DNA of 64,000 nucleotides. It comes from Longimicrobiales bacterium (lineage in GTDB: Bacteria > Gemmatimonadota > Gemmatimonadetes > Longimicrobiales > Gaopeijiaceae). The notes below the pieces were generated by a model, which had not been told where the DNA came from, ran no database searches, and saw only the letters and a program-made list of their open reading frames with translations. This document shows, in pieces, positions 24,099 through 42,375 of this stretch. Numbering within the stretch: position 1 is the first letter of the stretch; each line of letters starts with the position of its first letter. Position numbers and translations under genes: made by a program. Location: positions 992,001 to 1,056,000 of the forward strand of contig OZ241892.1 in assembly GCA_965203485.1 (NCBI GenBank), given 5' to 3'.

Positions 24099-24283
24099 GG
24101 GGAGGGTGTCGGCGTGGGATGGGGGGCATTCGGCTCTCCTGGCGTTTCCGTGCGCCGGGCGGGCTCTGTCGTGCCAGTCGGCACCGGTTCCCGCGACGAC
24201 GCCATGTCCGCAGACGCCTTGTCTCGCAACGCGACTTGACGGTTGGCGGCTCTCCTTGGAGCCCCCGGCCCTCGGATCCACCG

Positions 24284-24312
24284 TTGCCATTCCTGGCGAA
24301 CTTGCTTAACTT
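24284..24312 (+). promoter_or_regulatory. sigma70-like promoter of cassette A
   Basis: TTGCCA-N17-TAACTT; block 24240-24391 is homologous to 27722-27871. Confidence 0.6.
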
Positions 24313-24388
24313 GAGTGTGCGAGTCGTCCGCGTCTCGGCGAACGCAGAGGCACGAACATTGACCTTTCGCCAACTGGAGGGTTCCCGC

Positions 24389-24889
24389 ATGAAGGACGGA
24401 TGCCGAATTCCCCACTTCCTCGTCGCCGGACTGCTTTCGGCGGCCTTCCACATTGGCGTTGCCCCGGTGGCGGCTGGGGTCATCCAATCCCCCCCCCCCC
24501 CCCCCTTCGCTCTTCGTAGGCGCGGCGGCGGCGGACGGTGACGTAGAGTTGGCCGTCCGTCAGCGGCTTTCCGGCCACATGACGGCTGATGATCAACCGG
24601 GCACGACTTCGGTCCAACTCTTGGTGCCCGTCGGTCCCCTAGTCTCGCAGGTGCGCTCAACGGCAAGTTGTAGCTATTACGGGATGGTACGTGAGGCCGT
24701 GTTGTGCGTAATCGGGTGGGGTATACCGGCACTGAAGGATGGAGAATGGGACGAAAGACCTTGAGGGCGATCAGGGATGGCGTGAACGTTCTCGATGCGG
24801 TGTCGATGGTTCTTGGGAGCTTCTTTTGTATGGAGATATACGAGTCCTACGAGGCTTGGGAGCAATGCCGCCGAGGCGGCGAGTGCTAG
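24389..24889 (+). pseudogene. cassette A: secreted protein with the conserved signal-leader family and a bacteriocin-like Cys-containing C-terminus; frameshifted at the C17 tract and near 24738
   Basis: MKDGCRIPHFLVAGLLSAAFHIGVAPVAAGVIQSP aligns with the 40101 and 31754 leaders; continues SLFVGAAAADGDVE in another frame; ends ...[22 protein letters not shown]. Confidence 0.6.
24489..24505. repeat. poly-C tract (17 nt) inside the cassette A gene
   Basis: Seen directly; the paralog at ~40200 has TCCCCCTC. Confidence 0.9.
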
Positions 24890-24993
24890 CCGGAGGGCGA
24901 CGATTGAAGCTCCGAGAGAATGAAACGTGGGTGCGAGAGTATTTGCGATTCCCTTTTCGACGCGGTGTTCCAGTGCTTGGAAAAGCGGAAGAA

Positions 24994-26604
24994 ATGCTCA
25001 TGGTCGCCCTTGGCCGATGGCCGATCCGCACGTCAATCACATCCCTAGCTGTCATTTGTGGACCCATACTCCTAGTCGACTATAGCACCAGCGACGCCGT
25101 CTGGTTCCTCATGAAGCCCGTTATCCAGGCCACGGTGTTGTTCCTAACGTACCTCGGCGTCAAAAACCTTGTTTGTTTAGTAGCGCGGTTGGGGTACGCC
25201 GTAGCCCGCAGGGATATGGGGGAGGACAAGTTGGAGCAGGAAGGCGATGGCCGGTCGACGCCAGCCGGTCGAGGGGGAGATTGCCCGACGGTGGTGCTCG
25301 TGCTCGCTCTCTTGCCGTTGCCCGTGTTCGGTCAGCAGGTCGTGGAGTTGCCGGTGGCCGAGCGGTTGCTCCGAGGCGAATTCGAGGAAGTCTTGCGGAT
25401 CGGAGGTCGCGAAGCGGACGACTGGCGTTCCCTTGTTGACGTGACCAGCGTCGGCTTCGACGAGGACGGGAAGTTGTTCATCGGCGATTTCTCGTCGGCT
25501 GGACTTCGGATCGTCGTCCTGGATGCGGATGGGGATCTCGTGGCGGAATTCGGCCGAAGAGGAGACGGTCCGAGCGAGTTTCGCGGTGCGGCGATGCGTT
25601 TGATCGCACTCGGCGACGGACGCGTTGCGGTGCCCGACAACGGGCATGGCGGATACCATGTCTTCGACGCCGGCGGCGAGTGGAAAGAGATGGTCCGGTT
25701 TTCGTCCGACGCGGCCGGGGACGTCTCCATGCGAATGCCGGAAGTCGTCCGGAACAGGAACTGGGCGCCGGATCGCACGGGTGGCCTGCTGTCGCGTGTC
25801 GCGCATGTGGCTGGCATGACGATGGATTCCGTCGAGCTGTCCATGTTCATGTCCGAAACGGAGGGTCCGCGACAGGTCGAGCGCGTCCTTCTCGAAGGCG
25901 ACGAGGCGCGCCATGAAGTCGTCGTTTCCGGCTGGACGCCGCCGGGGGCGGAGCGCGCTCGGTTGATCGGCATGGGGGACCTCATGGAAGATGCCATCGA
26001 GCTCGGCGACCCCGGCGCGCCGGCGCTCCTGCCCAAGTTTCTGTTCGCGGCGTTGCCGAACGGCGGGATCGCGTACTCGGATTCCTCGGCCTACGCGATA
26101 CATGTCGCGAGCGCCGGCGGCGAGGTCGAGCGGACATTGCGTCGCGCCGTGATGCCTCGCCGGGTCACGGGCGAAGTGCGCGACGCATACCGGCAATGGC
26201 GGTTGCGACGCGTGGAGCAGGAGGAGGACGAAGAGCTTGCGGCTCTCCAGCGCGAACTCGTCAAGCAGGTGGACTTCTACGACGAAGTTCCGGTGCTTGA
26301 CGGCCTGCGGGCCACTTGGGCCGGCACGTTGTGGGTCTTGCGCACTCCGGAGAGCGGCTTTCCGTGGGAAGTGGACGAAGCAGTGGACGTGCTCCCGCTG
26401 GGACGGGACCTCCTCGAGCTTGGCCGCGAGCCCGCGGCCATCGACGTCGTCGCGCTGGACGGACGCTACGTCGGCACGTTCCCGGCTGGGGCGACGCCGA
26501 TGCCGGTTGCGTTCGGCCCCGGCGGACTGGCGGCGTTCGTGGAGCTCGACGAGCTGGACGTGCCGACCGTGGTCGTGCGCAGGTTGCCGACGGAAGTGCG
26601 GTAG
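24994..26604 (+). CDS. 6-bladed beta-propeller (NHL/TolB-like) secreted protein; the propeller gene may start at ~25291, with an upstream 2-TM segment in the same frame
   Basis: [48 protein letters not shown]; signal-like [16 protein letters not shown]. Confidence 0.75.
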
Positions 26605-26721
26605 CGAGCGTGTCGATGGACAGTCCCTTTGCGTGGGCTCGCCAGTCCGTGGACGCCGTGCGGCTCAGGGCTCCGGCTTTGTGGGCGGTTGGCGTTGCGA
26701 TCGTCTTGGGCGGCCTCGTTC

Positions 26722-27576
26722 GCGTTGCGCGTCTTGGTGCGCCGCAGCTGGGAAGCGAGCCGGCGGACGCACGGGCGGCCGCGCATCCACGCCGGTCTCG
26801 CGGCCTGGGGCGAGCGCGTCGGTCCGAAGCGCGTCGCCCGCCTCATGCGCGAGGAGGGCATCGAGGGCGCGAGCCGCAGGCGCCGCAAGGCGGCGCTGAC
26901 GGTGCGCGACGCCGACGCGCGCCTGGCTCCGGACTTGGTCGAGCGCGACTTCAGCGCCGAAGGCCCCGACCAGCTCTGGGTCGCCGACATCACGCACGTG
27001 CCGGCCGGGCCGGATGGCTCTACCTGGCCGTCGTCGTCGACGCCTGGAGCCGCCGCGTCGTCGGCTGGGCCATGGAGACGCACCTGCGCGGCGAACTCGT
27101 CGAGCGCGCGCTCGCCATGGCCGTCGAGAACCGCTGTCCAGAGACCGTGATCCATCATTCGGACCAGGGGTCGCAGTACACGTCCTCGGCGTTCGGCGAG
27201 CGGTGCAGGAAGGCCGGCGTGCGTCGCTCGACGGGCTCGGTGGGCGACGCCTACGACAACGCGATGTGCGAGAGCTTCTTCGCCACGTTGGAATGCGAGT
27301 TGCTCGACCGTTGCCAGTTCAACAAGTCCGGCCGAAGCCCGGCGCGCCGTCTTCGCCTTCATCGAAGGCTTCTACAACTCGCGGCGCCGACTCTCGGCGC
27401 TCGACTGCGAATCCCCGCCGGCTTCGAGCGCAAGCGTGCGGTCGCGTAGGTGCACCGACCCCCTCGACACGAGGCCGTTCGGCGCCCTTGCGCCTCCGTC
27501 CTTCCCAAAGTCATGTTTCACATCGCACTACCTGAACCCAAGATCCTTGCCCGTCCACCATACCGGGTCAACTCCA
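26722..27576 (+). mobile_element. IS3-family remnant (orfB part plus right IR), 5'-truncated and frameshifted
   Basis: LWVADIT, DAWSRRVVGW, HHSDQGSQY, DNAMCESFF; ends ...GTCCACCATACCGGGTCAACTCCA; near-identical inverted copy at 36760-37610. Confidence 0.9.
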
Positions 27577-27720
27577 GTGCAACTTTTTGTCCCACGGACC
27601 CAAGTAGCTACTGTTCGTTTGTTGGCCACGAAGCCTCCGGAACTTGCAGTCGCGAGGCCTGCTCAATGGCGCATTTATCTTCCCAACAACCATTACATGC
27701 GATCCAGCCTTGCGATAGAG
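27577..27720 (+). pseudogene. IS-truncated variant allele of the 6-Cys peptide core at 34252-34397
   Basis: ATFCPTDPSSYCSFVGHEASGTCSREACSM vs ATFCPTDPSSFCLFLGHGASGTCSREACSM. Confidence 0.85.
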
Positions 27721-27767
27721 CGGCGGGCTGGCGGCTCCCTTCTTGAGCCCGGCCGTCGGATCCGAAT

Positions 27768-27796
27768 TTGTCATTTCGCGACGACTTGCTTAAATT
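27768..27796 (+). promoter_or_regulatory. sigma70-like promoter of cassette C
   Basis: TTGTCA-N17-TAAATT; AGGAG RBS before ATG 27869. Confidence 0.6.
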
Positions 27797-27868
27797 GCTT
27801 GGCGAGTCGCGTCTTGGCGAGCGCGGAGGGCTCCCAACATCAATTCCTTGCCAACAGGAGATTCTCGC

Positions 27869-28123
27869 ATGAACGGCAAGAGAAGGAAAGCACGGCGTTG
27901 GAAGAGCATCTCATTCGTTCTGCCCATCGTTGGCATCGTGCTGGCGACGGGGACCTTCACGACTCCGAAGACGCTGGTCGGCCAGATTGACAACGAATGC
28001 GCCGCCGACGCGATCGCGCGGCACGCCGAGTGCATCGAGAAACGTAGGACGTGGTTGGGCGAGAGGATTTGCGACGCCACGCTGGCCGCGAGGTTGTTGC
28101 TTTGCTTGGTCGACACGCTCTAG
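27869..28123 (+). CDS. cassette C: 84-aa secreted peptide with twin CX10C motif
   Basis: Basic n-region plus hydrophobic h-region; mature C-x10-C-x12-C-x10-C. Confidence 0.75.
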   Translation: MNGKRRKARRWKSISFVLPIVGIVLATGTFTTPKTLVGQIDNECAADAIARHAECIEKRRTWLGERICDATLAARLLLCLVDTL

Positions 28124-28219
28124 TCGAGACTTAGAGTCTTGCAGCGGCGTCGCGACTGCAGGGACGACGCCCCCCGCACAGCACTTAGCACGGTAGCGGT
28201 GGCGGTCGCAACAACCGTC

Positions 28220-29260
28220 ATGGCGACGAGCCTCGTGTGGGGCGTGCTGGCTACCCGCTCGTTCCAAGGCGTCTCGGATTCTCGCGGTTCAGACGACACC
28301 GTAGGCTTTGGCGATGCCGGGGCGACGGTATCGCCTCCGCCCGGTGCGACGGCCTTCTCCGAAGTGTTGTCGGCAACCGACGCCGACCTTCGGGATTCTG
28401 TTTGGTTCGTCCTCGACAGGAGAGGACGCCGCGTGCACCGGTTCGGGGAGTCGGGTGCGCTTCTCGGGACTTTCGCGCGGGAGGGAAGGGGTCCGGGCGA
28501 GCTGTCGTTTCCCTCCGCGGTGGCTGTTCATCGCGACACGGTGGTGGTGGCCGACGGGCTCGCCATTCTGCTGTACGCGCCTAGCGGCGAGCACATCGAG
28601 GACCGCAGGTTCTCCTTCGACGGTTGCTGGGCGCCTCGCATCACGGACGTCAACTCGGGCCCGCTCGGTCTTCTCTTCCTAGTTCGTTGTACGAGCCGGG
28701 CGCGGGAAAGCGCGGTGTTTCTCGCGGCCGCGGACGGGCGTGCCCGGCGACTCGCCGTCCTTTCTGCGAAGGGGCGCGGAAACGTGTTGAGCTTCGCGTC
28801 CACACCCGTCGTCAGCGCCCATGGTGGCGGCTTCGTGTTTGGCGATGCGCGGTCGGACTGCTTGGACTTGTTCGACGGCGGCGGCGCGCCCAAGCGGCGC
28901 TTCTGCCACGACTGGATGCCGCGCCTGCCCTTGTCCAGGCAGGAAAGGGACGACGTGGAGGAGGAGCTTCGAGGCCTCGCGGGCGCGGCGGGACTTCGCT
29001 GGGACGTTCCGGCGAGCCTCCCTCCGTTCGACCGGGTGTTCGCGCTGGAAGGCGGAAGACTGGCCTACCGCGCCCTGGCCCGGGACTCGAGCGGAGAGGC
29101 GACGATGTTTCGATTGGTCGTCCAAGGCGAGACGGGCGACGCGCTGGCGCTTCCGGTGCCTCTCGCCTCGGCCGTGTTCGCTTCGGGCGAGTCCGCGCTG
29201 GCCGCGTGGGAGGCCGTGGACGCCATGCACGTCGCCGTGTATTCCTTGCGGGACTTCTGA
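28220..29260 (+). CDS. beta-propeller (NHL/6-bladed) protein, N-terminal anchor (start uncertain)
   Basis: WFVLDRRGRRVHRF, FAREGRGPGELSFPSAVAV, VVVADG. Confidence 0.75.
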   Translation: MATSLVWGVLATRSFQGVSDSRGSDDTVGFGDAGATVSPPPGATAFSEVLSATDADLRDSVWFVLDRRGRRVHRFGESGALLGTFAREGRGPGELSFPSAVAVHRDTVVVADGLAILLYAPSGEHIEDRRFSFDGCWAPRITDVNSGPLGLLFLVRCTSRARESAVFLAAADGRARRLAVLSAKGRGNVLSFASTPVVSAHGGGFVFGDARSDCLDLFDGGGAPKRRFCHDWMPRLPLSRQERDDVEEELRGLAGAAGLRWDVPASLPPFDRVFALEGGRLAYRALARDSSGEATMFRLVVQGETGDALALPVPLASAVFASGESALAAWEAVDAMHVAVYSLRDF

Positions 29261-29264
29261 CTCT

Positions 29265-30005
29265 GTGAACACTGCGCTCGAGCCGGCTCCGGTCCGAGTC
29301 GAGGCGTTGGCGGCGTCGTACCGGAGAGTTCTGCGCCGCCAAGCGGTGCTTCACGACGTGGAGATGGCGGTGGAGCCGGGCGAAGTTGCGGCGCTGGTGG
29401 GGCCGAACGGGGCGGGGAAGACGACGCTTTTGAGGATCCTGCTGGGCTTCAAGCAGCCCGACCGCGGGCAGTGCGCCGTCGCCGGCCTGTCCCCGAAGGA
29501 GTATCGGCGCCGCCGGGGCGTGGGATACCTCCCGGAGTCGCTGGTCTTTCCGCGTGTGTGGACATGCCGCGACTTTCTAGGGCGAAGCGCGGACCTGTCC
29601 GCCGAGCCGTCGCAGCGGCGGGCGGTCTTCGCGCGCTCGGTGGCGAGGAGCGGTCTCGACGCCGCGGCGCTCGGCAAGCCCGCCCGGCTGTGCTCGAAGG
29701 GCATGCGCAGGCGGCTCGGGCTCGCGCACGCTCTTGCCGCCGAACCGGCGCTCGTCGTGCTCGACGAGCCGTTCTCGGGGCTGGACCCGCGGGCGCGCGC
29801 GGCGTTGCGAGAGGAAGTGCAGGCGGCCCGGGAGCGCGGCGCCGCCGTGCTGTTCGCGAGTCACGAGACGGCCGAAGTGCAACGGCTGGCCGACCGCGTC
29901 TTCATTCTGGCGGATGGACGGACGCGGCCCGGACCCGCGCGTTCCGGCGACCCCGCGGCCGACTTGGCCGCCCTGGAGGCCGAACTTCTGCGCGGCGACC
30001 GGTGA
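29265..30005 (+). CDS. ABC transporter ATP-binding protein
   Basis: GPNGAGKTT, CSKGMRRR signature, LDEPFSGLD, SH. Confidence 0.92.
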   Translation: MNTALEPAPVRVEALAASYRRVLRRQAVLHDVEMAVEPGEVAALVGPNGAGKTTLLRILLGFKQPDRGQCAVAGLSPKEYRRRRGVGYLPESLVFPRVWTCRDFLGRSADLSAEPSQRRAVFARSVARSGLDAAALGKPARLCSKGMRRRLGLAHALAAEPALVVLDEPFSGLDPRARAALREEVQAARERGAAVLFASHETAEVQRLADRVFILADGRTRPGPARSGDPAADLAALEAELLRGDR

Positions 30006-30733
30006 CCGACCGGCTCTTGCCGGCGCCGAAGCGACTCGCGTTGGTTGCTCGCGAGAACGCCCGTGGCTTCGCAGCGCTCGTCGCGTTCGCCGGAGCCTTG
30101 TACGGGTTGTATGCGATGATCGAAGACGCGACGGAGTCGTGGATGGACGTTGCGCCCCGCCTGCTGGCCGTCCTTGCGCCCTTGGTGGTCGTGGGCAGCT
30201 TCCGCCAGAGGATGGCCGGCGCATCCGCTCTCTGGCTCCAGAGGCCGGTGGACCCGTTGCGCTTCCACTTCGCCCGCTTCCTCGAGGTCGCGTCGGTCGC
30301 GGTGGTCTCCGCGGCGCTGTTTCGCTGCACGGCCGTGGCCATCGGTCTGGCGGGCGGCTGGGAGCCCGAAGCGCATCCGTTGCAGCCTCTGCCGACGGAC
30401 GTCTTGAGAGCGGTTGCGATCGCCGCCGTCGGCTTCGGCCTGTCCTGTTGGTGGGGCGAGCGCGGCAGGCTGGCCGCCTGCGCCTACTTTGCGCTTTCCA
30501 TGGCCGCGGCCGTGCAGATGCTCTTGGCCGGCGCGGGTGAAGAGCCATGGACCCAGGTCGTTCGCGCGGTGTCCTTGCCCTCTACGGCGAGCCTTGAAGA
30601 GGCGCTTTGGTTCCTCGTCGGCAGCCCCGGCGGCGACGGGCGCGCCGCGGCGTGGTTCCTCGCCTACGTGGCGGCATGGCTGGGCGTGGGTGCGGTCGGC
30701 ATCCGCGCCCTCGCCGAGCAACGGGCCAAGTAG
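30002..30733 (+). CDS. putative ABC-2 type permease
   Basis: About 6 hydrophobic helices; translationally coupled to the ATPase. Confidence 0.7.
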
Positions 30734-30781
30734 GCCACCGAGCCGTCGGTCTCGTATCAGGTCCCGCCATTTCCGCGCGGC

Positions 30782-31222
30782 CTTCGGCCTGGAGTACGTG
30801 GGCGCGGACAACCGCCCGCACAAGGCCGTGGTCGTCCACCGCACGCTCCTGGGGTCGATGGAGCGCTTCGTGGGCGGGCCTGGTGGAGCACTACGCCGGC
30901 GCGTTTCCGCTGTGGCTGGCGCCCTGTCAGGCGCGGGTGCTCCCGGTGTCGGAGCCGTGGGCGGGCTCGGCGCGCGAACTGGCGGCGCAGCTGGCCGCGG
31001 ACGGCCTGCGGACCGAGGTGCATGAACGCGAGACGCTGTCGTACCGCATCCGGGCCGCCGAGACGCAGAAGGTCCCCTACATGGCGATCGTGGGCGAGCG
31101 CGAAGCGGGGGCGGGCACGGTGGCCGTCCGCAAGCGGGGCGCCGGGCGCAAGCAGGAAACGATGACGAGGCGGGCCTTCGCGGAGCGGTTGCTGGAGGAA
31201 GCGGCTTCGGGGGCGCTGGGGT
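30782..31222 (+). repeat. diverged duplicate of the thrS 3' end (23657-24096), with a frameshift near 30876
   Basis: [29 protein letters not shown]...AFAERLLEE repeated with scattered substitutions. Confidence 0.95.
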
Positions 31223-31244
31223 CGCGCAAGCCGAGCGGCATGCC

Positions 31245-31463
31245 ATGACGGTTGCCGCCTTCGACACGCATCGAGCCGTGCGCCGCCTCGAAGCGGCCGG
31301 AATGGAGACTCGGCAAGCCGAAGCCATCGTGTCGGAAATGCGCGAAGCGGCTGGGGCCGACCGCAGCGAACTGGTCACGCGCGGCGAACTCTACCGTGCC
31401 CTATGGATTTCGGGCGCCGGCATCGTCGCCATCCTGACCGCGCTTCGGTTTCTGCCGATCTGA
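31245..31463 (+). CDS. DUF1640/CCDC90-like small protein
   Basis: FDTHRAVRRLEAAGMETRQAEAIV...LVTRGEL plus C-terminal TM helix. Confidence 0.75.
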   Translation: MTVAAFDTHRAVRRLEAAGMETRQAEAIVSEMREAAGADRSELVTRGELYRALWISGAGIVAILTALRFLPI

Positions 31464-31753
31464 TCGGTCGCGCCGTGGCGCCGGCCACGATCTGGCGGAT
31501 GGTCCCGGACGGCGCGGGTCGTGCCGAGCCCCCTCGTCGGTGGCGGTCGCAATGGTTCCAATCCCTCGAACTCTTTGCCCGCAGGGGCGGCGGTGGAGTC
31601 GCGTTCGCATACCTGCAGAATGTCGTCCGAGAGCGGACTTGACGGGCATGGCCGACTGGTTACGTTGACAGAAGCAGGTTCTTTTGCCTCGCCGCGCCCT
31701 GGCGAGCGCGGAAGGCTCGTCCCTATCGTCCGTCATCGAGAGGAACTCGCGCC

Positions 31754-32270
31754 ATGAACGACAGATGCCGACTCTCCCAGCTTGTGTTCGCCGGACTGCT
31801 TTCGGCGGCTTGCCATGCTGGCTTTGCCCCGGTCGCCGGAGCCAGTCAGCTCCCCCTGTTCCCGTGTTCGCTTGGCTTGACGTGGCCGAGGGAGACGTAG
31901 AGGTAGCTGAAGCGTCGGCAATATCCCGGCATCTTGCTGTTGACGCCGACGGCATCGCAACGGACGTCAAGGACGAGTGCGGGCTCCATCTCACGGTGTC
32001 CGTCTTGGCCGACACCTCGCTTCCGCAAGAGCGTGGAGCGCCCTCCATCCGTTCCGATGCGGGCTACTGCCCGAATGGGCCAGCGAGGGCAGGATCACGC
32101 CCAGCAGCGGCGCTCCAGGCGAGATTGACGGAATTGAAGTCACGGTGTGCAAACTCAGGGGCGAACGGGTGGTTTACTTCGAGACTGACGCCATGGGCAG
32201 GGCGACCTTTATCTTTCGATGCGACTACGGTCCCAACTGCAAGCCACGCCCCCACCTGGTGAACATGTAA
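31754..32270 (+). pseudogene. cassette D: secreted Cys-containing protein, paralog of 40101-40577, two frameshifts
   Basis: MNDRCRLSQLVFAGLLSAACHAGFAPVA leader; GAPSIRSDAGYCP/EWASEGRITPSSGAPGEIDG...CDYGP; the second shift is CCC vs CCCC; promoter TTGACG-N16-TACGTT at 31639-31666. Confidence 0.8.
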
Positions 32271-33427
32271 TGCACGACCGTTCGAAACAAGGCGTGGTGA
32301 TGCGCATTGGACGCGGCGTTGTTGTTGCATTGGCGGCTAGTGCGCCGGAGACGGCAGCACAACAGATTCTGGAAGTGGACATGGACGCCGGCCGAGAGCT
32401 CGTCGGCGGGATCGAGTACCTGTTCGACTCCAGAACCGCGGCGGTGGACTACGACCGGCGGCTGGTGTTGGTCTCGGAGGCTGCTGATCCACTGGCCGTG
32501 ACGGCCTGGTCCTTGGACGATGGTTCGGTGCGGGACGTCTTCGGGGGTGGCCGGCCGGGCGACGGCCCGGGCGAACTCGCAGGGGTGCAAGCGACGGCCG
32601 TGGGGCCGGACGGCGTCTTCGTGGCGGGATTCGGCAGGGTGCTTCATTGGAGTTGGTCGGGCGCCCTTCTCCATCAATGGAGGCCGACGGCGCCGGGAGC
32701 GCATGCCGTGTGCGCGTTGAACAGCCGTCCGGCGGTCCCGTTGCATCCGAGGGGTCTGGTATTTCGTGGCGACGACGGCGAGAGCGTTGCGTTGGGCGGG
32801 GAAGCCAGCGCTCGGTTGGACTGGGACCGGAAGCGGCCTGACGATCTCCTCTCCAGCTATTCCGCCTACAGTTCAACCTTGATGACATGTGCGGACTCTG
32901 CCGCATACGTGCTGCACAGCGCTGGCCACACGCTCACGGAATACAAGACGAGAGCGGAGCCGCGCTTGATCGCAATGCCCGCGGAGTTGGCGGAAGCGGC
33001 ACGCAAGAAGATGGAGTCTTCCACGCAGAACGCCTTTTCTTCTGGATACTCCCAACTGTTCTTGGCCGACGACGGTCGGCTCGTCGTCATGACGAAGGCG
33101 TACGGGTTGGCGGGAGCTGTGGTGGACCGGGCGACGGGTTGCTACGCGCTGTTGAAGAACAAGCCCGATCCGCCCGTCTGGAGCTACGTCGGGATGTTTG
33201 CCGACAGCCTCGTGACGCTGGAGGGCAGCCGGCAACCGACGACGATGGTTGTGGACGGGAAGGAACGCCGCGTGTTTGTGGGGGACGAGACGCACATCTT
33301 CGTGCGCCCGGTTCGGCCCGCCTCGGGCGTGCCCTGCGACCCCGGCGGCCTGGCGGCGTTCGTGGAGTTCGGCGATCTGGACGTGCCGGCCGTGGTCGCG
33401 CGCAGGTTGCCGGCCGAAGTGCGGTAG
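32270..33427 (+). CDS. beta-propeller protein, paralog of 40579-41625, with a chimeric C-terminal tail from the 24994-26604 gene type
   Basis: QQILEVDMDAGRE, PGDGPGEL; tail [27 protein letters not shown]. Confidence 0.8.
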   Translation: MHDRSKQGVVMRIGRGVVVALAASAPETAAQQILEVDMDAGRELVGGIEYLFDSRTAAVDYDRRLVLVSEAADPLAVTAWSLDDGSVRDVFGGGRPGDGPGELAGVQATAVGPDGVFVAGFGRVLHWSWSGALLHQWRPTAPGAHAVCALNSRPAVPLHPRGLVFRGDDGESVALGGEASARLDWDRKRPDDLLSSYSAYSSTLMTCADSAAYVLHSAGHTLTEYKTRAEPRLIAMPAELAEAARKKMESSTQNAFSSGYSQLFLADDGRLVVMTKAYGLAGAVVDRATGCYALLKNKPDPPVWSYVGMFADSLVTLEGSRQPTTMVVDGKERRVFVGDETHIFVRPVRPASGVPCDPGGLAAFVEFGDLDVPAVVARRLPAEVR

Positions 33428-33871
33428 CGAGCGTGTCGACGGGCGCTCCCCTTGCGTGGGCTCGCCGGTCCGTGGACGCCGTGCGGATCAGGGCCCCGGC
33501 TTTGCGGGCGGTCGGCGTTGCGATCCTCTTGGGCGGCCTTTCGTGGCGACCTTGGCCGTGGCTGGCTCGGCGCTTTGGGGCTGGACGATGCTCTGGTCCT
33601 ACGTGGAGCAGGCCGCGGCCCGTCGGGGTCGCGCGGCCGGCGTCCCCGGTCCCCTCGTCTCTCGCCCGCGAGACGGAGTTCCCGGCCGGGTCGCGCGGCC
33701 CCGCCGGGGGCTCCGCTCGACGGGGCTTTCGGCGGCCCTTCCGGAGCCGCCGCCGCCCGAACGGCGGCCACCGGCGGCGCCGCGGAAGTCGAATCTCGCA
33801 AAAACGCTTGTTCAGCAACGTGAATTGGCGTTTTTCGCCCCCGTGGCGAGGCGTTCTCCGTGCCCCGCAAT

Positions 33872-33984
33872 TTGCCAATTGCGGATCGATTGCTCAACTT
33901 GCTTGGTCCGTGACGGAGAGGTGCGGATCGAGAGTGAAGCGCCGGGGGCGGCCCGCAAGGGACCCGTCGGCAGTCGCGGGAAAG
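33872..33984 (+). repeat. promoter plus 5' domain of the large candidate ncRNA (third, partial copy), fused to the cassette B 5' UTR
   Basis: Matches 38659-38771; TTGCCA-N17-CAACTT. Confidence 0.8.
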
Positions 33985-34025: not shown

Positions 34026-34394
34026 ATGAACGACAGACAGCGCCGACCCTCCCAACATGCGTTCGCCAGACTGTCTTCGGCGGCCTTCCACGCTGGCTTT
34101 CGCGGAATGCTCGCCGCCGCCAAGACGCGTCACTTAAGCCGGGTGATGGCCTGGACGAAACGAGTCGTCTTGGGTTGGGCCTTGATCATCATTCTTGGTG
34201 GTACCGGCGTCCTGATTGCAACCGAGAGATTACCTGGCGACCAAAAGGTATGTGCAACTTTTTGTCCCACGGACCCAAGTAGCTTCTGTTTGTTTCTTGG
34301 CCACGGCGCCTCCGGAACTTGCAGTCGCGAGGCCTGCTCAATGGCACCATTTATCTTCCCAACAACCATTACATGCGATCTAGCCTTGCGATAG
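34026..34394 (+). CDS. cassette B: secreted 6-Cys peptide precursor (alternative start 34146)
   Basis: Degenerate family leader MNDRQRRPSQHAFARLSSAAFHAGF, second signal MAWTKRVVLGWALIIILGGTGVLIA, core CATFCPTDPSSFCLFLGHGASGTCSREACSMAPFIFPTTITCDLALR. Confidence 0.7.
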   Translation: MNDRQRRPSQHAFARLSSAAFHAGFRGMLAAAKTRHLSRVMAWTKRVVLGWALIIILGGTGVLIATERLPGDQKVCATFCPTDPSSFCLFLGHGASGTCSREACSMAPFIFPTTITCDLALR

Positions 34395-34437
34395 AGCTGC
34401 GCCCGGATTCTCGAATCGGCAACGGTCCAACAGCTTT

Positions 34438-34700
34438 GGCTCTTCGCCTGATGTGGTGGGGAAGGACAGGGGACGGGGACGGAACGGGGATGGCACGGGG
34501 CACGGCGGGTCAGTGCCGGGCGAGGCACAGACAGAGGTCGAGGCCGCCGAGGTGGAAGAGAATGGCCGCGGCGAAGCGGTCCTGGTTGGGAACCCACGAC
34601 TCCGGGCCTGATCGCTTGGATGCGGCTGTTGGCGCCCTCGGCCGGGCCGTTGGTGGCGTTCAGCACGACGGCGTTGACGATGCCCGCAGGTGTGTCCGGA
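34438..34700 (-). mobile_element. ISL3-family remnant: transposase C-terminus plus right end
   Basis: Minus strand gives GIVNAVVLNATNGPAEGANSRIQAI...NQDRFAAAILFHLGGLDL; terminal GGCTCTT as at 39720 and 43247. Confidence 0.75.
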
Positions 34701-34816
34701 CCATCGCCGCCGCCTCCTCGACCGGCCCGAGTCCGAAGGCCGACGCCCATTGCAACCCCGTTACTCCTCGCTGGTCGAGACACTGTTCTTTTCATTGCGT
34801 TTTATGAGGTCTGAGA

Positions 34817-36727
34817 TTGTCAGTCACTCGTCTTGAGAATGTCGCTAAATATGCCACTTATGGCTTAATTGCAGTGACATCGCTGCTGGTGCTGGTGCTT
34901 CTCGGGCGTCGACAAGATGTGGTCGTCACTGAATTCGAAGACATGCCTGCGCCAGTTTATATACCTTTTTGGCGAGATATTGCCGATCTTGGTATAGCAA
35001 TGAACGATGACGGTTCTGCAGATGTAACGGTCATCATTTTTTTCGACCCTCAATGTCCGATCTGTCGGTCATTACATCGCCAGACGATTAAGCCTTTGTT
35101 ATCGGAGACGATGTGGGACGATGTGGAATTTGTCTACGTTGGATATCCGCTTGAGTATTATGAACATTCGAATATTGCAGTGCGCTATTCTATATGTGTA
35201 GCATCCCTTGGCGATTTTCCATCGTGGATGGACAATCTCTATGAGAAGCAAGATTATATCGGAAACAGAAATTGGAGATTATTTGCAAAAGATGTGGGAA
35301 TCAAAAATACAGATAAATTGGAGGAATGTATAAAAGAAGAATCTACAACACGGCAAATTCAAGATATGCTAACCTTTGGTGAAAAAATTGACATACATGG
35401 TGTCCCTGCCATAATTATAGATGGTTGGAAATATCAATACACACCATCGGATAGCTCGCTTCGTGAGATTCTTCATGTTGCATTGGGCAACACTGAACGA
35501 AAATCAGAACCGCATCCAACGTCAAGCGATTCTCTCTTTTCGATACCTTTGATACATTCGAAGATGGAACTGCAAATTGGCAACGAACATGACGTCTTAT
35601 GGACATTGCAGACTGTTGAGGATATAGTAATCGGCGATGACGGACGTGTGTTGGTTTCGCAACCGGGGATTCCAGAAATTCGGGTCTTTGGGCATGATGG
35701 CGAGATCATGGCGACCATCGGCCGCATGGGCGATGGACCTGGAGAGTTTGCGAGCATCGACGCCATGACATGGCAAAATGGAAAAATTATTGTAAATGAC
35801 AATCAACTACTGCGCACTAGCGTTTTTGAACAAGACGGCACTTTTCTGGAATCCAAGCAATGGCTCGTCGACCTGACGCCAACTCATCATGGACGGTTTT
35901 CATTTTTCCCCAATTCGCCGCGTGTCGTTTTCCCAGACGGAACCGGCATCGTCAGGCCGAACATCCTAGCTTTGCCGGACAGACCGGCACACGGGATAAA
36001 CCGCGTGGAGGATCGTGTGCCCTTCTTGAAGATTGACGCAGATGGACGCGTTGTCGACACGCTTGCGTGGGAAGAGACCACGGCGACTGTGTTGACAATG
36101 GAACGACGACAGGCAATGCACTCGATCGTGTCTCCTTTTGGCGAGAACAAGCGGACCACGGTGACGAGCAAGGGAGGCATCGTGGAGGCAAGCGTGAGCC
36201 ACGGGCATGATGGAAGACGTGCGATGAACGCCATTCGAATATGGGCACTTGATCCGACGGGCGATACAGCATGGATTCGAGAATACGAATATCGACCTAT
36301 ACCGGCAACACGGGAGCTAGCGAAGTCGCTGGTCCAAGATGCCGTAGTTTTTTCAGGAGATCCTCAGCATCAACCCTCGGCTGAGATCTTTTATGACGAG
36401 CTTGTAAGGAGAGGAGCGATCAGAGACGATCTGCCGGCATTTTCAGATCTCCATGTCGGCCAGGACGACATCATATGGTTGCGGAGAGATGTGAATTTGA
36501 CGTCGGCTGAATACGCCATCTTGGACATGCTCGGAAACGTCAGAGGAACGGTGCAACTTCCCAGGCGACATCGCGTGACGGCGAGCCGCGACGACGTCGT
36601 GTACGCCGTTGCGGAAGGCGCATTGGGCGTTCCCGTGCTGTTCCGGTACAGCATTGAGATGCCTGAAGCCTTCAAGAGCGCGTGGCAGTCAGAACGTGCT
36701 GGAAGATCGACAAGAGAGCGGAATTGA
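34817..36727 (+). CDS. DsbA/thioredoxin-fold domain fused to a 6-bladed beta-propeller, N-terminal membrane anchor; AT-rich 5' half
   Basis: FFDPQCPIC, IHGVPAIIIDG; then LQIG, IGRMGDGPGEF, LGVPVLFRY. Confidence 0.8.
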   Translation: MSVTRLENVAKYATYGLIAVTSLLVLVLLGRRQDVVVTEFEDMPAPVYIPFWRDIADLGIAMNDDGSADVTVIIFFDPQCPICRSLHRQTIKPLLSETMWDDVEFVYVGYPLEYYEHSNIAVRYSICVASLGDFPSWMDNLYEKQDYIGNRNWRLFAKDVGIKNTDKLEECIKEESTTRQIQDMLTFGEKIDIHGVPAIIIDGWKYQYTPSDSSLREILHVALGNTERKSEPHPTSSDSLFSIPLIHSKMELQIGNEHDVLWTLQTVEDIVIGDDGRVLVSQPGIPEIRVFGHDGEIMATIGRMGDGPGEFASIDAMTWQNGKIIVNDNQLLRTSVFEQDGTFLESKQWLVDLTPTHHGRFSFFPNSPRVVFPDGTGIVRPNILALPDRPAHGINRVEDRVPFLKIDADGRVVDTLAWEETTATVLTMERRQAMHSIVSPFGENKRTTVTSKGGIVEASVSHGHDGRRAMNAIRIWALDPTGDTAWIREYEYRPIPATRELAKSLVQDAVVFSGDPQHQPSAEIFYDELVRRGAIRDDLPAFSDLHVGQDDIIWLRRDVNLTSAEYAILDMLGNVRGTVQLPRRHRVTASRDDVVYAVAEGALGVPVLFRYSIEMPEAFKSAWQSERAGRSTRERN

Positions 36728-36759
36728 TCCGATGAGCACGAGCCAAGGAACTGAAACGG

Positions 36760-38030
36760 TGGAGTTGACCCGGTATGGTGGACGGGCAAGGATCTTGGGT
36801 TCAGGTAGTGCGATGTGAAACATGACTTTGGGAAGGACGGAGGCGCAAGGGCGCCGAACGGCCTCGTGTCGAGGGGGTCGGTGCACCTACGCGACCGCAC
36901 GCTTGCGCTCGAAGCCGGCGGGGATTCGCAGTCGAGCGCCGAGAGTCGGCGCCGCGAGTTGTAGAAGCCTTCGATGAAGGCGAAGACGGCGCGCCGGGCT
37001 TCGGCCGGACTTGTTGAACTGGCAACGGTCGAGCAACTCGCATTCCAACGTGGCGAAGAAGCTCTCGCACATCGCGTTGTCGTAGGCGTCGCCCACCGAG
37101 CCCGTCGAGCGACGCACGCCGGGCTTCCTGCACCGCTCGCCGAACGCCGAGGACGTGTACTGCGACCCCTGATCCGAATGATGGATCACGGTCTCTGGAC
37201 AGCGGTTCTCGACGGCCATGGCGAGCGCGCGCTCGACGAGTTCGCCGCGCAGGTGCGTCTCCATGGCCCAGCCGACGACGCGGCGGCTCCAGGCGTCGAC
37301 GACGACGGCCAGGTAGAGCCATCCGGCCCCGGCCGACACGTGCGTGATGTCGGCGACCCAGAGCTGGTCGGGGCCTTCGGCGCTGAAGTCGCGCTCGACC
37401 AAGTCCGGAGCCGGGCGCGCGTCGGCGTCGCGCACCGTCAGCGCCACCTTGCGGCGCCTGCGGCTCGCGCCCTCGATGCCCTCCTCGCGCATGAGGCGGG
37501 CGACGCGCTTCGAACCGACGCGCTCGCCCCAGGCCGCGAGATCGGCGTGGATGCGCGGCCGACTCGCTTCCCAGCTACGGCGCACCGAGACGCGCAACGC
37601 GTCGTCGCGCAACGCGCTCGCACATCGCGCGCACGGGAAACACGGCCCGGTGCGCTTTCACGAACTCGAACCCTCTCCGGGAATCGAGCCGCTCTCCCGA
37701 GCGAACCAGGCCGCGGCTTTTTTTAGGATGTCGCGCTCGAGGCGCAACTGCTTGTTCTCCCGCTTCAGGCGGCGCAACTCGTCCCGCTCGCGCGTCGTCG
37801 TCCCGTCGTCGCGACGGCCCTCGTCGAGATCGGCCTGCTCGACCCAGTTGCGGATCGTCGGCGCCGACGGCTCGAACTCACGCGCCAGCGCCTCCGGCGA
37901 CCGGCCCGAACGCGCCAGATCCACCATTCGCCGCCGGTACTCCAGCGGGTACTGCTTGCGTTTCTTCGGCATCGTGGACTCCTCCTCGTCCCGAAAGATT
38001 GAACGTGTCCACCATGCCGGGGCAACTCCA
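36760..38030 (-). mobile_element. IS3-family element with both IRs; orfA 37972-37658 intact, orfB degraded
   Basis: TG...CA ends (TGGAGTTGCCCCGGCATGGTGGAC / TGGAGTTGACCCGGTATGGTGGAC); orfA MPKKRKQYPLEYRR...ERDILKKAAAWFA; A7G slippery site 37717-37724; no clear target duplication. Confidence 0.92.
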
Positions 38031-38771
38031 GGTTGTGGACGGGAAGGAACGCCGCGTGTTTGTGGGGGACGAGACGCACATCTTCGTGCGCCCGGTTCGG
38101 CCCGCCTCGGGCGTGCCCTGCGACCCCGGCGGCCTGGCGGCGTTCGTGGAGTTCGGCGATCTGGACGTGCCGGCCGTGGTCGCGCGCAGGTTGCCGGCCG
38201 AAGTGCGGTAGCGAGCGTGTCGACGGGCGCTCCCCTTGCGTGGGCTCGCCGGTCCGTGGACGCCGCGCGGATCAGGGCCCCGGCTTTGCGGGCGGTCGGC
38301 GTTGCGATCCTCTTGGGCGGCCTTTCGTGGCGACCTTGGCCGTGGCTGGCTCGGCGCTTTGGGGCTGGACGATGCTCTGGTCCTACGTGGAGCAGGCCGC
38401 GGCCCGTCGGGGTCGCGCGGCCGGCGTCTCCGGTCCCCTCGTCTCTCGCCCGCGAGACGGAGTTCCCGGCCGGGTCGCGCGGCCCAGCCGGGGGCTCCGC
38501 TCGACGGGGCTTCGGCGGCCCTTCCGGAGCCGCCGCCGCCCGAACGGCGGCCACCGGCGGCGCCGCGGAAGTCACGCGAATCTCGCAAAAACGCTTGTTC
38601 AGCAACGTGAATTGGCGTTTTTCGCCCCCGTGGCGAGGCGTTCTCCGTGCGCCGCAATTTGCCAATTGCGGATCGATTGCTCAACTTGCTTGGTCCGTGA
38701 CGGAGAGGTGCGGATCGAGAGTGAAGCGCCGGGGGCGGCCCGCAAGGGACCCGTCGGCAGTCGCGGGAAAG
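38031..38771 (+). repeat. near-identical direct repeat of 33247-33984
   Basis: Propeller 3' end, downstream spacer and ncRNA 5' domain repeated with few differences. Confidence 0.95.
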
Positions 38772-39164
38772 CCGGAAGCCGGACAGGCTTCGCGCACAAG
38801 GGGAGGGGAGTCCCGTCAGGGACGACCGGCCCTGGACGGCGAGTCTTCCGGAAGTCGGCAGCGCCGGGGAGGCCGGGCGTCGCGTTGCGAGACGCAGGCG
38901 GTGCGGTTCCACGGCGAGCGCGGCATCCCGGTTTCGGCGGGAGCCGCGACGGTTGCAAGGTCGCTGGACGCAACCGGAGTCCCCGGGAACGGGGGACGGC
39001 CCGAGCCGCGGAGAGCGCCGGAGACGGCGAAGGAAGCGGGGAGGGAGAAGAGCACGGAGGACCGTGCCGCTGCACACGGCGGCGCCGAAACGGAGCCCTC
39101 CCGCTCGCCAGCGAGATTGAGCCCCCGGCCGGGTGGTGTGCCTCCCGCCGGGGGCTCTTTTTTT
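38693..39164 (+). ncRNA. candidate large structured ncRNA, copy B (diverged homolog of 44955-45421)
   Basis: Promoter TTGCCA-N17-CAACTT (38659-38687); same helices as copy A; terminator at 39119-39164. Confidence 0.65.
39119..39164 (+). terminator. intrinsic terminator
   Basis: GAGCCCCCGGC...GCCGGGGGCTC followed by T7. Confidence 0.85.
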
Positions 39165-39395
39165 GCGTGCGTTGCCCGTCTGGTCGCCGCGCGTTGTCCG
39201 TCCGCCGGCGGGTTACATTAAACGGCTTGGCTCGAGCCGGTCCTTGGAACCGAACGCGGGGCGGTTCCGTAGTGGAGCGTCCGAAAGCGGCGGGCCGCAC
39301 GTCCCCTTCAACCCGGTCTTCCCCGTGCGGGTTCCCAAACGACCGGCAACACTCGGAGCGCCGCCCTCCTCCTGGGACGGCGGCGAGCGCAACCC

Positions 39396-39647
39396 ATGAC
39401 CGAACCAAAGGAATCCGCCGAGGCCGAGGCCGGCCCGGACTCCCAGACCAGACGACGATTCGACCCGAACGACATCTCTCCGGAGTTCGTTCACGACAAC
39501 TACGGCCTTGAAGAGGCGCTTTGGTTCCTCGCCGGTAGCCCCGGCGGCGACGGGCGCGCCGCGGCGTGGTTTCTCGCCTACGTTGCGGCGTGGCTGGGCG
39601 TGGGTGCGGCCGGCATCCGCGCCGTAGCCGAGCGCCGGGCCACGTAG
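39396..39647 (+). pseudogene. chimeric ORF: diverged rpsA N-terminus fused to a copy of the ABC permease C-terminus
   Basis: RFDPNDISPEFVHDNYG (cf. rpsA RFDPDDISPEFVHDTYG) plus [25 protein letters not shown] (cf. 30591-30733). Confidence 0.85.
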
Positions 39648-39675
39648 GTGCTCCTGCCGTCGCCCGAAAGCGGAT

Positions 39676-39704: not shown

Positions 39705-39719
39705 GCCGTAAGATATACA

Positions 39720-40066
39720 GGCTCTTCCCCTGTTTCGGTGGGCGTCGTAGGATGGACAGGAGTGGCGGCGTGACTCTGGGAGCGAGGAGAGCGGATGGAG
39801 ATGCGGGAGTGGGTGGAGCGGCTGATGGGTCTGGGGCCGGAGTGGCGGATCGAGCGGGTGGACGAGGATTCGGAGCGGCAGGACGCGCGGGTGGCGCTGG
39901 CGCGCGAGGCGGGTTCGGCGTTGCGGTGTCCGGAGTGCGGGCGGGCGTGTCCGGGTTGCGGCGGGAGTGGCGGGGGCTGGACGCATGGGGATACAAGACG
40001 TTCGTGGTGTACGACGTGCCTCGGGTGGAATGTCCCGAGCACGGGGTGGTGACGACGCGGGTGCCG
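39720..40066 (+). mobile_element. ISL3-family left end plus truncated transposase 5' part
   Basis: GGCTCTT terminus; LRCPECGRAC zinc finger; WRGLDAWGYKTFVVYDVPRVECPEHGV. Confidence 0.85.
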
Positions 40067-40100
40067 TCTCTCATCTCTCCTCGACAGGGAACTCCCGCCC

Positions 40101-40577
40101 ATGAGTGACAGATACCGACTCTCTCAGTTTCTGTTTGCCGGATTGCTTTCGGCGGCTTTCCAGGCTGGCGTTGCCCCGGCGGCAACTGGAGCCCTTCAAT
40201 CCCCCTCTTCGTTCTTCGTAGGCGCGACGGAAGCGTATGGTGACGTAGGACAAGTCGGTGGTGCGGACGATTGGATGGCGGCCACAAAGGACTTCGTCGC
40301 CGGCGAGCAGCGCGCCCGCACCGAAGACGTTGCGCCCCCGCAAGAGTGTGGAGCGCCGTCCATCCGTTCCGATGCCGCCTACTGCCCCGAATGGGCCAGT
40401 AAGAGCAGGATCACGCCCAGTAGCGGCGCTCCAGGCGAGATTGACGGAGTCGAAATCACGGCGTGCAGGCTCAGAGGCCAGAAAGTGGTTTACATCGAAC
40501 ACCTCTGGTTCGATACCTTTGCTGTCTGGGAATGCGACTACGGCCCATGTGGAACCCGCTCTCACATTTCGCACTGA
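40101..40577 (+). CDS. cassette D': intact 158-aa secreted Cys-containing protein
   Basis: MSDRYRLSQFLFAGLLSAAFQAGVAPAATGA signal; 5 Cys in the C-terminal half; stop two bases before the propeller ATG. Confidence 0.8.
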   Translation: MSDRYRLSQFLFAGLLSAAFQAGVAPAATGALQSPSSFFVGATEAYGDVGQVGGADDWMAATKDFVAGEQRARTEDVAPPQECGAPSIRSDAAYCPEWASKSRITPSSGAPGEIDGVEITACRLRGQKVVYIEHLWFDTFAVWECDYGPCGTRSHISH

Positions 40578-40578
40578 C

Positions 40579-41625
40579 ATGCGCATTTGGAGTGGCGTTG
40601 CTGTTGCGTTGGCCACTGGCGTGCCGGATGGATCGACGCAACAGATTCTGGAAGTGGACATGGATGCCGGCCGGGAGCTCGTCGGCGGGATCGAGTACCT
40701 GTTCGACTCCAGGACTGCGGTAGTGGACTATGGTCGGCGGCTGGTGATGGTCTCGGAGGCTGCCGATCCATTGGCCGTGACGGCCTACTCGCTGGACGAC
40801 GGTTCGGTGCAAGGCATCTTCGGAGGCGGCCAGCTGGGCGACGGGCCCGGCGAACTCACGCACTTGGAGGCAGTGGCCGTTGGATCAGACGGCGTCTTCG
40901 TGGCCGGAAGAGGCAGGGTGCTCCACTGGAGTTGGTCGGGCGTCCTTCTCCATCGATGGAGGCCGACCGCACCGGGAACGAACGCTCTATGCGCATTGAA
41001 CGGCCGTCCCGCCGTTCCGTTGCAGGACAAGGGGGTGGTGTTCCGTGGCGACGACGGCGAGAGCGTTGCGTTGGGCGGAGAAGCCCGATCCGAATTGGAC
41101 TGGTCCGCGGCCTCTAGGCGCGATGACCTTCTCGATATCTTTACCGCCTACGGTCAAGCCAAGGTGGCATGTGCTGATTCGGCGGCATATGTGCTGGCCG
41201 GCATGAACCATGTGCTCACGGAGTACAAGACGGGAGCGGAGCCGCGCTTGGTCGCGATGCCCGCAGAGTTGGTGGAAGCGGCACGCAAGAGAATGGAAGA
41301 ATCCAGCCAGAACGCCTTTTATCCTGGGTACGAGACCCTGTTCCTGGCCGACGACGGTCGGCTTGTCGTCACGACGTTGGCGTACGGGCTGGCGGGAGCG
41401 GTCGTGGACCGGAAGACGGGCTGTTACGCACTGTTGAAGAACAAGCCCAATCCGCCCGCATGGAGCTACGTCGGGATGTTCGCCGACAGCCTCGTGACGC
41501 TGGAGGGCAGCCGACAACCGACGACGATGGTTTTGGACGGAAAGGAACGTCGCGTGTTTGTATCGGACGAGACGCACATCTTCGTGCGCCCGGTTCGGCC
41601 CGCATCGGGCCAGCCCTGTACGTAG
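40579..41625 (+). CDS. beta-propeller protein partner of cassette D'
   Basis: QQILEVDMDAGRE, LGDGPGEL; close paralog of 32270-33427. Confidence 0.8.
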   Translation: MRIWSGVAVALATGVPDGSTQQILEVDMDAGRELVGGIEYLFDSRTAVVDYGRRLVMVSEAADPLAVTAYSLDDGSVQGIFGGGQLGDGPGELTHLEAVAVGSDGVFVAGRGRVLHWSWSGVLLHRWRPTAPGTNALCALNGRPAVPLQDKGVVFRGDDGESVALGGEARSELDWSAASRRDDLLDIFTAYGQAKVACADSAAYVLAGMNHVLTEYKTGAEPRLVAMPAELVEAARKRMEESSQNAFYPGYETLFLADDGRLVVTTLAYGLAGAVVDRKTGCYALLKNKPNPPAWSYVGMFADSLVTLEGSRQPTTMVLDGKERRVFVSDETHIFVRPVRPASGQPCT

Positions 41626-41639
41626 CGGGACGCTCTTCA

Positions 41640-42375
41640 ACGCGGCGCACCGTTGCGTTGTGAGACTGTCTGGAGGGAGCAAGGTTGCGAAACGTTATGG
41701 AACTCGACGAGTTGCACATGCCAACCGTTCCGTCTGGGAAAGCGACTACGACCCATGTGGAACTCGCCCTCACATTTCGCACTGACATGCGCATTTGGAG
41801 TGGCGTTGCTGTTGCGTTGGCCACTGGCGTGCCGGAGGGAGCGACGCAACAGATTCTGGCAGTGGACATGGATGCCGGGCGAGAGGTCGGCCGCACCGGG
41901 AACGAAGGCTCTTTGCGCATTGAACGGCCGTCTCGCCGTCCCGTTGCAGGAGAATGGGGTGGTGTTCCGTGGCGACGCCGGCGAGAGCGTTGCATTGAGC
42001 GGAGAAGCCCGATCCGAATTGGACTGGTCCGTGGCCTCTAGGCGCTGTGACCTTCTCGATATCTCTATCGTCTACGGTCAAGCCAAGGTGGCATGTGCTG
42101 ATTCGACGGCATATGTGTTGGCCGGCACGGACCACGTGCTCACGGAGTACAAGACGGGAGCGGAGCCGCGCTTGGTCGCGATGCCCGCAGAGTTGGTGGA
42201 AGCCGCGCGCAAGAGAATGGAACAACCCAGCGGGAATGCCTTTTATCCTGGGTACGAGGCCCTTCCTGGCCGACGACGGTCGGCTCGTCATCTTGTACGT
42301 TGGCGTACGGATTGGCCGGAGCGGTCATGGACCGGACCATGGGCTGTTACGCGCTGGACAAGCCCAATTCCGCGC
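41640..42375 (+). pseudogene. degraded tandem copy (D''): variant peptide C-terminus plus internally deleted, frameshifted propeller
   Basis: VWESDYDPCGTRPHISH* then MRIWSGVAVALATG...; about 280 bp missing relative to the 40579 gene. Confidence 0.85.

Follow-up and report, generated by a model that had tools for sequence, protein, structure and literature searches.

In Bacteroidota, uncharacterized neighbourhoods of NVEALA proteins (PF14055) include beta-propeller genes. Lantibiotic producers protect themselves with LanI plus LanFEG, an extracytoplasmic binding protein and an ABC-2-type ATP-binding cassette (ABC) transporter encoded beside the peptide gene. Vibrio type VI secretion system (T6SS)/Rhs arrays carry orphan immunity genes, and their modules are proposed to enter by anchored recombination (PMC5361080). 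Here we describe an array that resembles each of these in part. It lies in a 64,000-nucleotide stretch (the window; G000:C1:992001-1056000) of the genome (G000) of a sponge-associated Longimicrobiales bacterium of the phylum Gemmatimonadota, a single contig of 3.56 Mb with 69% GC. Between thrS and rpsA, cassettes recur in which a small signal-peptide protein with cysteines precedes a beta-propeller; we call them, in order, A, C, D, B, D' and the remnant D'' (Table 1). Judging from gene organization and distribution, we think it plausible, though just short of probable, that each pair is an antibacterial toxin, the small cysteine protein, with its cognate propeller as immunity protein.

Like the NVEALA and DUF5128 (PF17170) neighbourhoods, the cassettes place a small exported cysteine protein before a six-bladed propeller, with a thioredoxin-fold partner nearby. 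Unlike NVEALA cassettes, they show no PF14055 match (C, B, D' and relatives of A), and none of the five window propellers has a lipobox (pattern scan of the first 60 residues, not SignalP), unlike the NVEALA propeller lipoproteins with which an earlier, sequence-only reading of this DNA compared them. The A, C, D and D' propellers draw no Pfam hit (for PF17170, none at E 0.1) and no peptidase-ABC is present; the B propeller scores 22.5 bits against the PF17170 cut-off of 22.9. Several G000 paralogs outside the window pass that cut-off. Cassette C follows the LanI plus LanFEG layout of peptide gene, extracytoplasmic protein and ABC-2 transporter, but it has one permease, no modification enzymes and a low TIGR03740 score (109 bits for its stand-alone 246-aa ATPase, cut-off 310), and LanI proteins are not propellers. 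Cassette B shares its domain order with NHLRC2 and SOQ1 (NHLRC2 is among the fold matches, Z 15.8); those proteins are eukaryotic and without a small partner gene, whereas the B protein is anchored in the membrane and its thioredoxin-fold domain is of the DsbA type.

In Gram-negative bacteroidetocin loci, too, the gene for a small cysteine peptide keeps company with genes for a thiol oxidoreductase, an ABC transporter and a membrane protein; their description gives a double-glycine leader and a peptidase-ABC, with no immunity protein and no mention of a propeller (PMC6671954), whereas we find signal peptides and a stand-alone ATPase with an ABC-2-like permease. The double-glycine leader and peptidase-domain ABC exporter of class II bacteriocins are absent here, hydrophobic signal peptides standing in their place. 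With the Vibrio arrays (PMC5361080), the locus shares variability, a constant 5' anchor with a variable 3' part, horizontally acquired modules and retained downstream partners. It differs in having no T6SS or contact-dependent inhibition carrier, a disulfide-rich cargo of 50-90 aa with a Sec signal, a 350-aa propeller as partner and a toxicity that is proposed here. Polymorphic toxins join a constant N-terminus to exchangeable C-terminal domains; the counterpart here, local to two genomes, is one leader before A and D domains and a mosaic gene in a congener (G001). The cognate gene lies directly downstream, and orphans are retained. The module appears to share the genomic, not the functional, hallmarks of polymorphic toxin systems, and it lacks what defines NVEALA cassettes, bacteroidetocins and ribosomally synthesized and post-translationally modified peptides (RiPPs). 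The literature searched (titles and starts of abstracts, plus Gemmatimonadota genomics main texts, where 'propeller' does not occur; most subscription journals lay outside its coverage) held no description of it.

The small protein-propeller link is real but a minority state. The small-gene starts given by the sequence-only reading (24389, 27869, 31754, 34026 and 40101) were all recovered, as were the motif G-x-G-P-x-E-[FL] in all five open propeller open reading frames (ORFs; ends 26604, 29260, 33427, 36727 and 41625), the ABC transporter of C (ATPase plus permease), the DsbA domain of B and the D'' remnant. The A propeller start, placed at 24994, had to be moved to near TTG 24904, which adds a fused two-helix membrane segment. 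Both genes are open in only three of the six cassettes (C, B and D'); A and D, also among the instances first listed, have broken small genes. A profile built from the motif retrieved 64 propeller ORFs genome-wide. We scored upstream small ORFs by criteria fixed after viewing the loci (ATG start, 40-200 aa, a hydrophobic N-terminal stretch, at least four Cys, ending within 400 nt). Such an ORF precedes 15 of the 64 propellers, compared with 2 of 640 gene-like starts (Fisher p 6e-15) and 0.35% of random places, so that the recurrent layout stands far above chance; it also extends beyond this array. Two independent sets were scored. Of 60 propeller loci retrieved from five relatives, 58 could be used; 6 of the 58 have a small ORF, against 2 of 58 on the opposite strand. 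Phylum-wide 2 of 31 do (35 matches, 4 dropped at locus ends).

Where small proteins occur, their identity follows that of the propeller. A quick propeller tree of 59 of the 64 G000 rows, the 5 omitted being short, assigns each of six small-protein families to a single propeller clade, with support of 97-100; co-duplication alone could produce this match. Across 151 family genomes, D-type domains gave 12 matches in 3, almost every one immediately ahead of a D-type propeller (library-wide 18 hits, three of them long repeat proteins that we discounted). C-type proteins, with twin C-x10-C motifs, occur in 31 of 151 family genomes from about 22 genera. All 30 C small loci that we read encode a signal peptide; a propeller follows directly in 26, 25 of those in one frame, and of the others two lie within a propeller cluster, one at a contig end and one without a propeller inside 1.5 kb. 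Ratios of non-synonymous to synonymous substitution (dN/dS) are 0.33-0.57 for the small domains, which marks the small ORFs as real genes, and 0.29-0.46 for the propellers. The earlier proposal of cognate pairing with swappable cargo is supported by clades that track families, pairing across genera and the G001 mosaic gene.

Loss of one partner is skewed. We counted nine pairs in which the small gene is broken or a remnant and the propeller open: window D, G000 3.057 Mb, G000 2.8146 Mb (nonsense), G001 2.310 Mb (C run), G001 L094, L079, G002 L075, G120 L202 and G197 L186. Window A, broken small gene and open propeller, comes in addition. The reverse was seen once. The asymmetry gives a one-sided p of 0.011 at even odds and 0.035 without two cases, four both-broken pairs being uncounted. 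Orphan propellers are also common among relatives: of 27 C-propeller loci outside G000, the small gene lies upstream in 14, lies downstream in 1 and is missing from 12, and among those 12, 9 retain the ABC ATPase and 2 have a broken propeller. Seven of 23 C-propeller genomes lack any C small match, and D propellers stand in tandem as orphans at G000 3.053-3.058 Mb.

The propeller fold predicted earlier is supported by a model of the D' protein, the only window propeller folded, which has six four-strand blades (pLDDT 89, pTM 0.89). Its top fold matches are animal NHL domains (Brat NHL, Z 20.6, root-mean-square deviation 3.3, 253 aligned residues; NHL range Z 17-21), with PknD and PAL at 17.3; at 10-17% identity, the likeness is one of fold only. 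D-type propellers have a plain signal peptide and no membrane or signalling domain, and C and B have membrane anchors. In B and at three further G000 loci the propeller carries a fused DsbA-like domain, and a fourth DsbA fusion adjoins a propeller gene. A predicted complex of the D' domain and D' propeller scored 0.27 and 0.01 (mark 0.32) and weighs neither way.

The small proteins (C, B, D' and relatives of A) have no Pfam or NCBIfam hit that would mark a toxin domain, and no clear match came out of fold searches. The D' domain is modelled as five beta strands with pLDDT of about 90 over residues 21-84; fold searches gave no Foldseek hit at E 0.001, a best Z of 3.5 and no usable Atlas hit, a result that proves neither novelty nor difference. 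The A-type domain contains a cationic amphipathic helix (moment about 1.0), and a small membrane segment follows it. A-type and D-type domains each keep five cysteines (A5 alignment; P0062/P0063), and this odd number suggests one intermolecular disulfide. For the B small protein, no convincing relative was found in 150 family genomes; of two weak matches, we rejected one as a C-type protein and the other as noise. A further G000 small-protein family, CC-x8/9-CC-x2-CC, occurs at 143138, 463647 and 2423595, not directly before a propeller.

The homologous leader noted earlier is present in A, D, B and D'. A functional-looking copy precedes two unrelated domains, A type and D type, rather than the three mature regions first described, since the B leader has lost its hydrophobic core and continues in frame into a second signal peptide. 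Only in D' do leader and cysteine domain share one frame. A DNA profile finds six copies in G000, four of them inside the window, and a deleted seventh at 3.058 Mb. The leader pattern occurs once in G001 and in none of G002, G120, G127 and G143; a DNA search across 60 family genomes found no match, a pattern search of JGI metagenomes gave none (nor did a D propeller search there), and a GTDB pattern scan returned eight loci, none informative besides G001. With a distribution limited to G000 and G001, the leader is ruled out both as a hallmark of the system and as a widespread RiPP-like signature. Different signal peptides front the D-type domains found at other loci, one akin to that of a neighbouring propeller. 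Judged from this and from its confinement to two genomes, the leader is a local, recombining signal peptide and not a RiPP leader. The only hits from scans of the island ORFs were to DsbA-like, ABC, propeller and restriction-modification proteins; as already noted, no RiPP-modifying enzyme was among them. The G001 small gene is itself a mosaic, with an A-like leader (88/105 bases), a D'-like linker (103/117) and a D-like domain and propeller.

On the toxin-immunity reading, the small protein would be exported by Sec and disulfide-folded, as its signal peptide, the conserved cysteines and the DsbA fusions suggest, and would then leave the cell or act in the periplasm of neighbours. The cognate propeller would bind and neutralize it, as a soluble protein in D and from a membrane anchor in C and B; cognate pairing, the absence of signalling domains, the loss asymmetry and the orphan arrays all point this way. 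A Sec substrate requires no ABC exporter, so the ABC-2 pair retained in C cassettes fits self-protection and may form a second layer of it. Mosaic flanks suggest that new cassettes enter by recombination at shared promoter and leader DNA and at thrS/rpsA sequence, as proposed for the Vibrio arrays (PMC5361080). Incoming cassettes would displace or break old small genes, leaving orphan propellers behind. Of the two functions first suggested, ligand/receptor or toxin/immunity, the loss asymmetry lends the latter some support; both stand as proposals.

More tentatively, the cassettes could represent a new polymorphic class of interbacterial weapon, in which disulfide mini-proteins with many unrelated folds leave through Sec, each is matched by a six-bladed propeller antidote and at times an ABC-2 pump, and symbiont strains swap these sets at hotspots anchored on housekeeping genes. 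If so, the DUF5128-like propeller expansion of Gemmatimonadota would be an antidote library, and a matched mini-protein per clade would make propeller function testable using short synthetic genes. New disulfide scaffolds, such as the D-type beta domain with no clear solved-fold match, and a mechanism of strain competition in dense sponge microbiomes would be in prospect.

Several observations weigh against toxins and antidotes. Most cysteine domains range from neutral to acidic, with net charges from +2 to -11, unlike typical cationic bacteriocins. The C type is mostly single-copy and kept across about 22 genera, which suits housekeeping or signalling too. Extracytoplasmic function (ECF) sigma and helix-turn-helix (HTH) genes adjoin other G000 clusters, and no dedicated outer-membrane route was identified, each genome having one secretin. 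Propellers without a small partner predominate (49 of 64 in G000, 52 of 58 in the five relatives, 29 of 31 phylum-wide), so the orphan state may be the default and the propeller may have a job of its own; many D propellers are broken too. The one reverse pair, in G186, combines an intact small gene with a one-base frameshift in the propeller. The asymmetry tally itself was made by eye on related pairs from partly propeller-first searches, and long-read indels may be errors.

The acidity of domains that do not look membrane-active and the ECF sigma and HTH neighbours also speak for signalling: the small proteins would be kin or state signals, the propellers periplasmic receptors feeding ECF sigma or other regulators, and orphans would eavesdrop. 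The match of small-protein families to propeller clades also fits, as do the PknD sensor and other binding propellers among the fold matches. We nonetheless consider signalling unlikely, since the island holds no regulator gene, D-type propellers lack any membrane link and the ABC-2 pair is left unexplained. We also doubt that the propeller serves the producer in folding or delivery, holding the small protein during DsbA disulfide formation while the finished protein plays another role. The DsbA-like fusions, the thioredoxin plus NHL architecture as in NHLRC2 (6gc1 among the fold matches) and the tight co-transcription layout (one nucleotide from the D' small-gene stop to the propeller start) recommend it; a chaperone, however, should decay after losing its client, yet open orphan propellers are common, often with the ABC pair.

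NHL proteins are enriched in sponge symbionts, sponge and marine metagenome runs from several studies contain window DNA, and in these genomes the propellers have expanded to between 40 and more than 150 copies (64 in G000, 84 in G001, at least 150 in G120). Both proteins might be aimed at a sponge host, the propellers being NHL proteins of eukaryotic likeness and the small proteins resembling defensins, a view to which the animal NHL fold matches also lend themselves. Those matches are at 10-17% identity, 54 of 121 phylum genomes contain PF17170, and about 22 genera have the C pair, counted regardless of habitat; we judge it very unlikely. That the array is a decaying dump of mobile DNA, its leader swaps chance recombination without selection, is highly improbable, for although insertion sequence (IS) pieces, duplicated housekeeping fragments, the few fully open cassettes and the many C/G runs elsewhere in the genome agree with it, it accounts for the scrambling and not for a module with dN/dS under 1, whole A relatives in public data and pairing kept across genera.

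The proposed toxin-immunity cassettes occupy a strain-variable island. The gap from thrS, which ends at 24098, to rpsA at about 45600 spans 21.5 kb in G000, compared with 6.5 kb in G001 and 0.8 kb in a second congener, G002; in two further family genomes, thrS is followed by unrelated genes. The second rpsA 5' region (38657-39506) is 94% identical to G001 and 79% to the genome's own rpsA region, and together with the second thrS 3' end it indicates that island pieces derive from other lineages. Positions 27726-32463 have a second copy at G000 2.814-2.819 Mb (90-97% identity). At the same site, G001 carries a C propeller without a small gene, an ABC pair, a D cassette and a membrane gene, and contigs from other runs connect parts of the array differently. 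No RNA run is listed among those that contain this DNA. The partial mobile element at 26721-27576 is one that we take, from its translation, to be of the IS3 type.

Table 1 Features of the thrS-rpsA island and its cassettes (window positions).
Feature	Position	Strand	Basis or state
Strain-variable island, thrS-rpsA gap	24098-45600		length comparison with G001 and G002
Sigma-70-like promoter (predicted), common to cassette C (27768-27796) and two other loci	24284-24312	+	sequence; function inferred
A small gene: common leader, C run, helical five-Cys domain	24389-24889	+	broken at two places
Two-helix membrane segment fused to A-clade propeller	24904-26604	+	start near TTG 24904
Partial IS3-type element (presumed), interrupting a membrane gene as well as a small gene of the B type	26721-27576	+	97% to seven genome copies
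B-type small gene, 3' fragment	27577-27725	+	94% to 34252-34401
C small gene: signal peptide, twin C-x10-C domain (84 aa, 4 Cys)	27869-28123	+	intact, open
C-type propeller with N-terminal membrane anchor	28139-29260	+	open
ABC ATPase 29265-30005 (DrrA-like, below cut-off) and ABC-2-like permease 30002-30733	29265-30733	+	profile scan
thrS 3' end, second (foreign) copy	30782-31222	+	94.6% to own thrS, 94.5% to G001
D small gene: common leader, five-Cys beta domain	31754-32270	+	broken, three frames
D-type propeller; final 28 codons are an A-clade propeller 3' end	32270-33427	+	open; sequence match
Copy of rpsA upstream region with promoter (33872)	33540-33984	+	sequence match
B small gene: six-Cys domain with its own signal peptide (from about 34143), preceded in frame by a degenerate leader	34026-34394	+	open
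Repeated mobile-element end separating B small gene from partner	34435-34757		83-86% matches, several genome places
B partner (49% GC): propeller carrying a membrane-anchored DsbA-like domain with CPIC	34817-36727	+	Thioredoxin_4 E 4e-18
Near-complete IS3-type element	36760-38030	-	92% to seven genome copies
D propeller 3' end repeat and foreign rpsA 5' region	38031-39506	+	99% to 33247-33984
Additional IS-like pieces	39719-40067 and 43041-43247		sequence match
D' small gene (158 aa): leader and linker before a five-stranded beta domain with five Cys	40101-40577	+	intact, open; predicted fold
D' propeller: signal peptide, six-bladed NHL-type fold	40579-41625	+	structure model
D'' remnant: last codons of D-type small gene, deleted and frameshifted propeller	41640-42395	+	sequence match

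The A small gene is broken in G000 at a 17-C run (24489-24505) and near 24736. Contigs from runs X1 and X2 match both places ungapped, which speaks against assembly error, though these runs are possibly the assembly's own source data. Whole A-type proteins exist in public data (P0062 and P0063). A contig from run X7 departs from the window at both breaks, and runs X7 and X9 carry variant A alleles; diverged alleles are present in two runs of one study. In X7 and X9, 24722-24888 is replaced; we dropped the idea of an unrelated tip, as the replacement length fits the diverged allele P0063 and is read as allelic. The A propeller has five clade-mates, all without a small gene, and its membrane segment has no further match among the loci compared. 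In P0065 (4 member sequences), an A-type cysteine domain follows another signal peptide and a CarboxypepD_reg-like domain, either a natural swap or a chimera.

The leader C run measures 17 in window A, 23 at 3.39 Mb and 14 in G001, and is 10 shorter in run X7. A case for phase variation at this run could not be made: its length varies, yet A and the 3.39-Mb copy carry a second break, and long runs occur genome-wide. C/G runs of 15-30 bases number 41 in G000 against 0.6 expected, among them 45531-45549 upstream of rpsA and eight clustered in a repeat at G000 2.3278-2.3326 Mb. Loss of mismatch repair as their cause was set aside, mutS (the only gene checked) being present.

The island also holds genes outside the cassettes. 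On the minus strand at 43260-44550 lie a BglII-like endonuclease (PF09195) and an N6/N4 methyltransferase, the latter split into two frames near 44240. A CCDC90-like gene of 72 aa (31245-31463) follows the thrS duplicate, and the island is flanked by two paralogous coiled-coil genes (20813-21233 and 42568-42978) whose products begin with a membrane segment. The thrS-rpsA gaps of the congeners encode membrane proteins without a Pfam match (L015:3224-3619 in G002, L014:3827-4351 in G001), which are possible candidates for orphan immunity genes. Two truncated copies of the G001 gene lie in the window, at 26617 and 33437.

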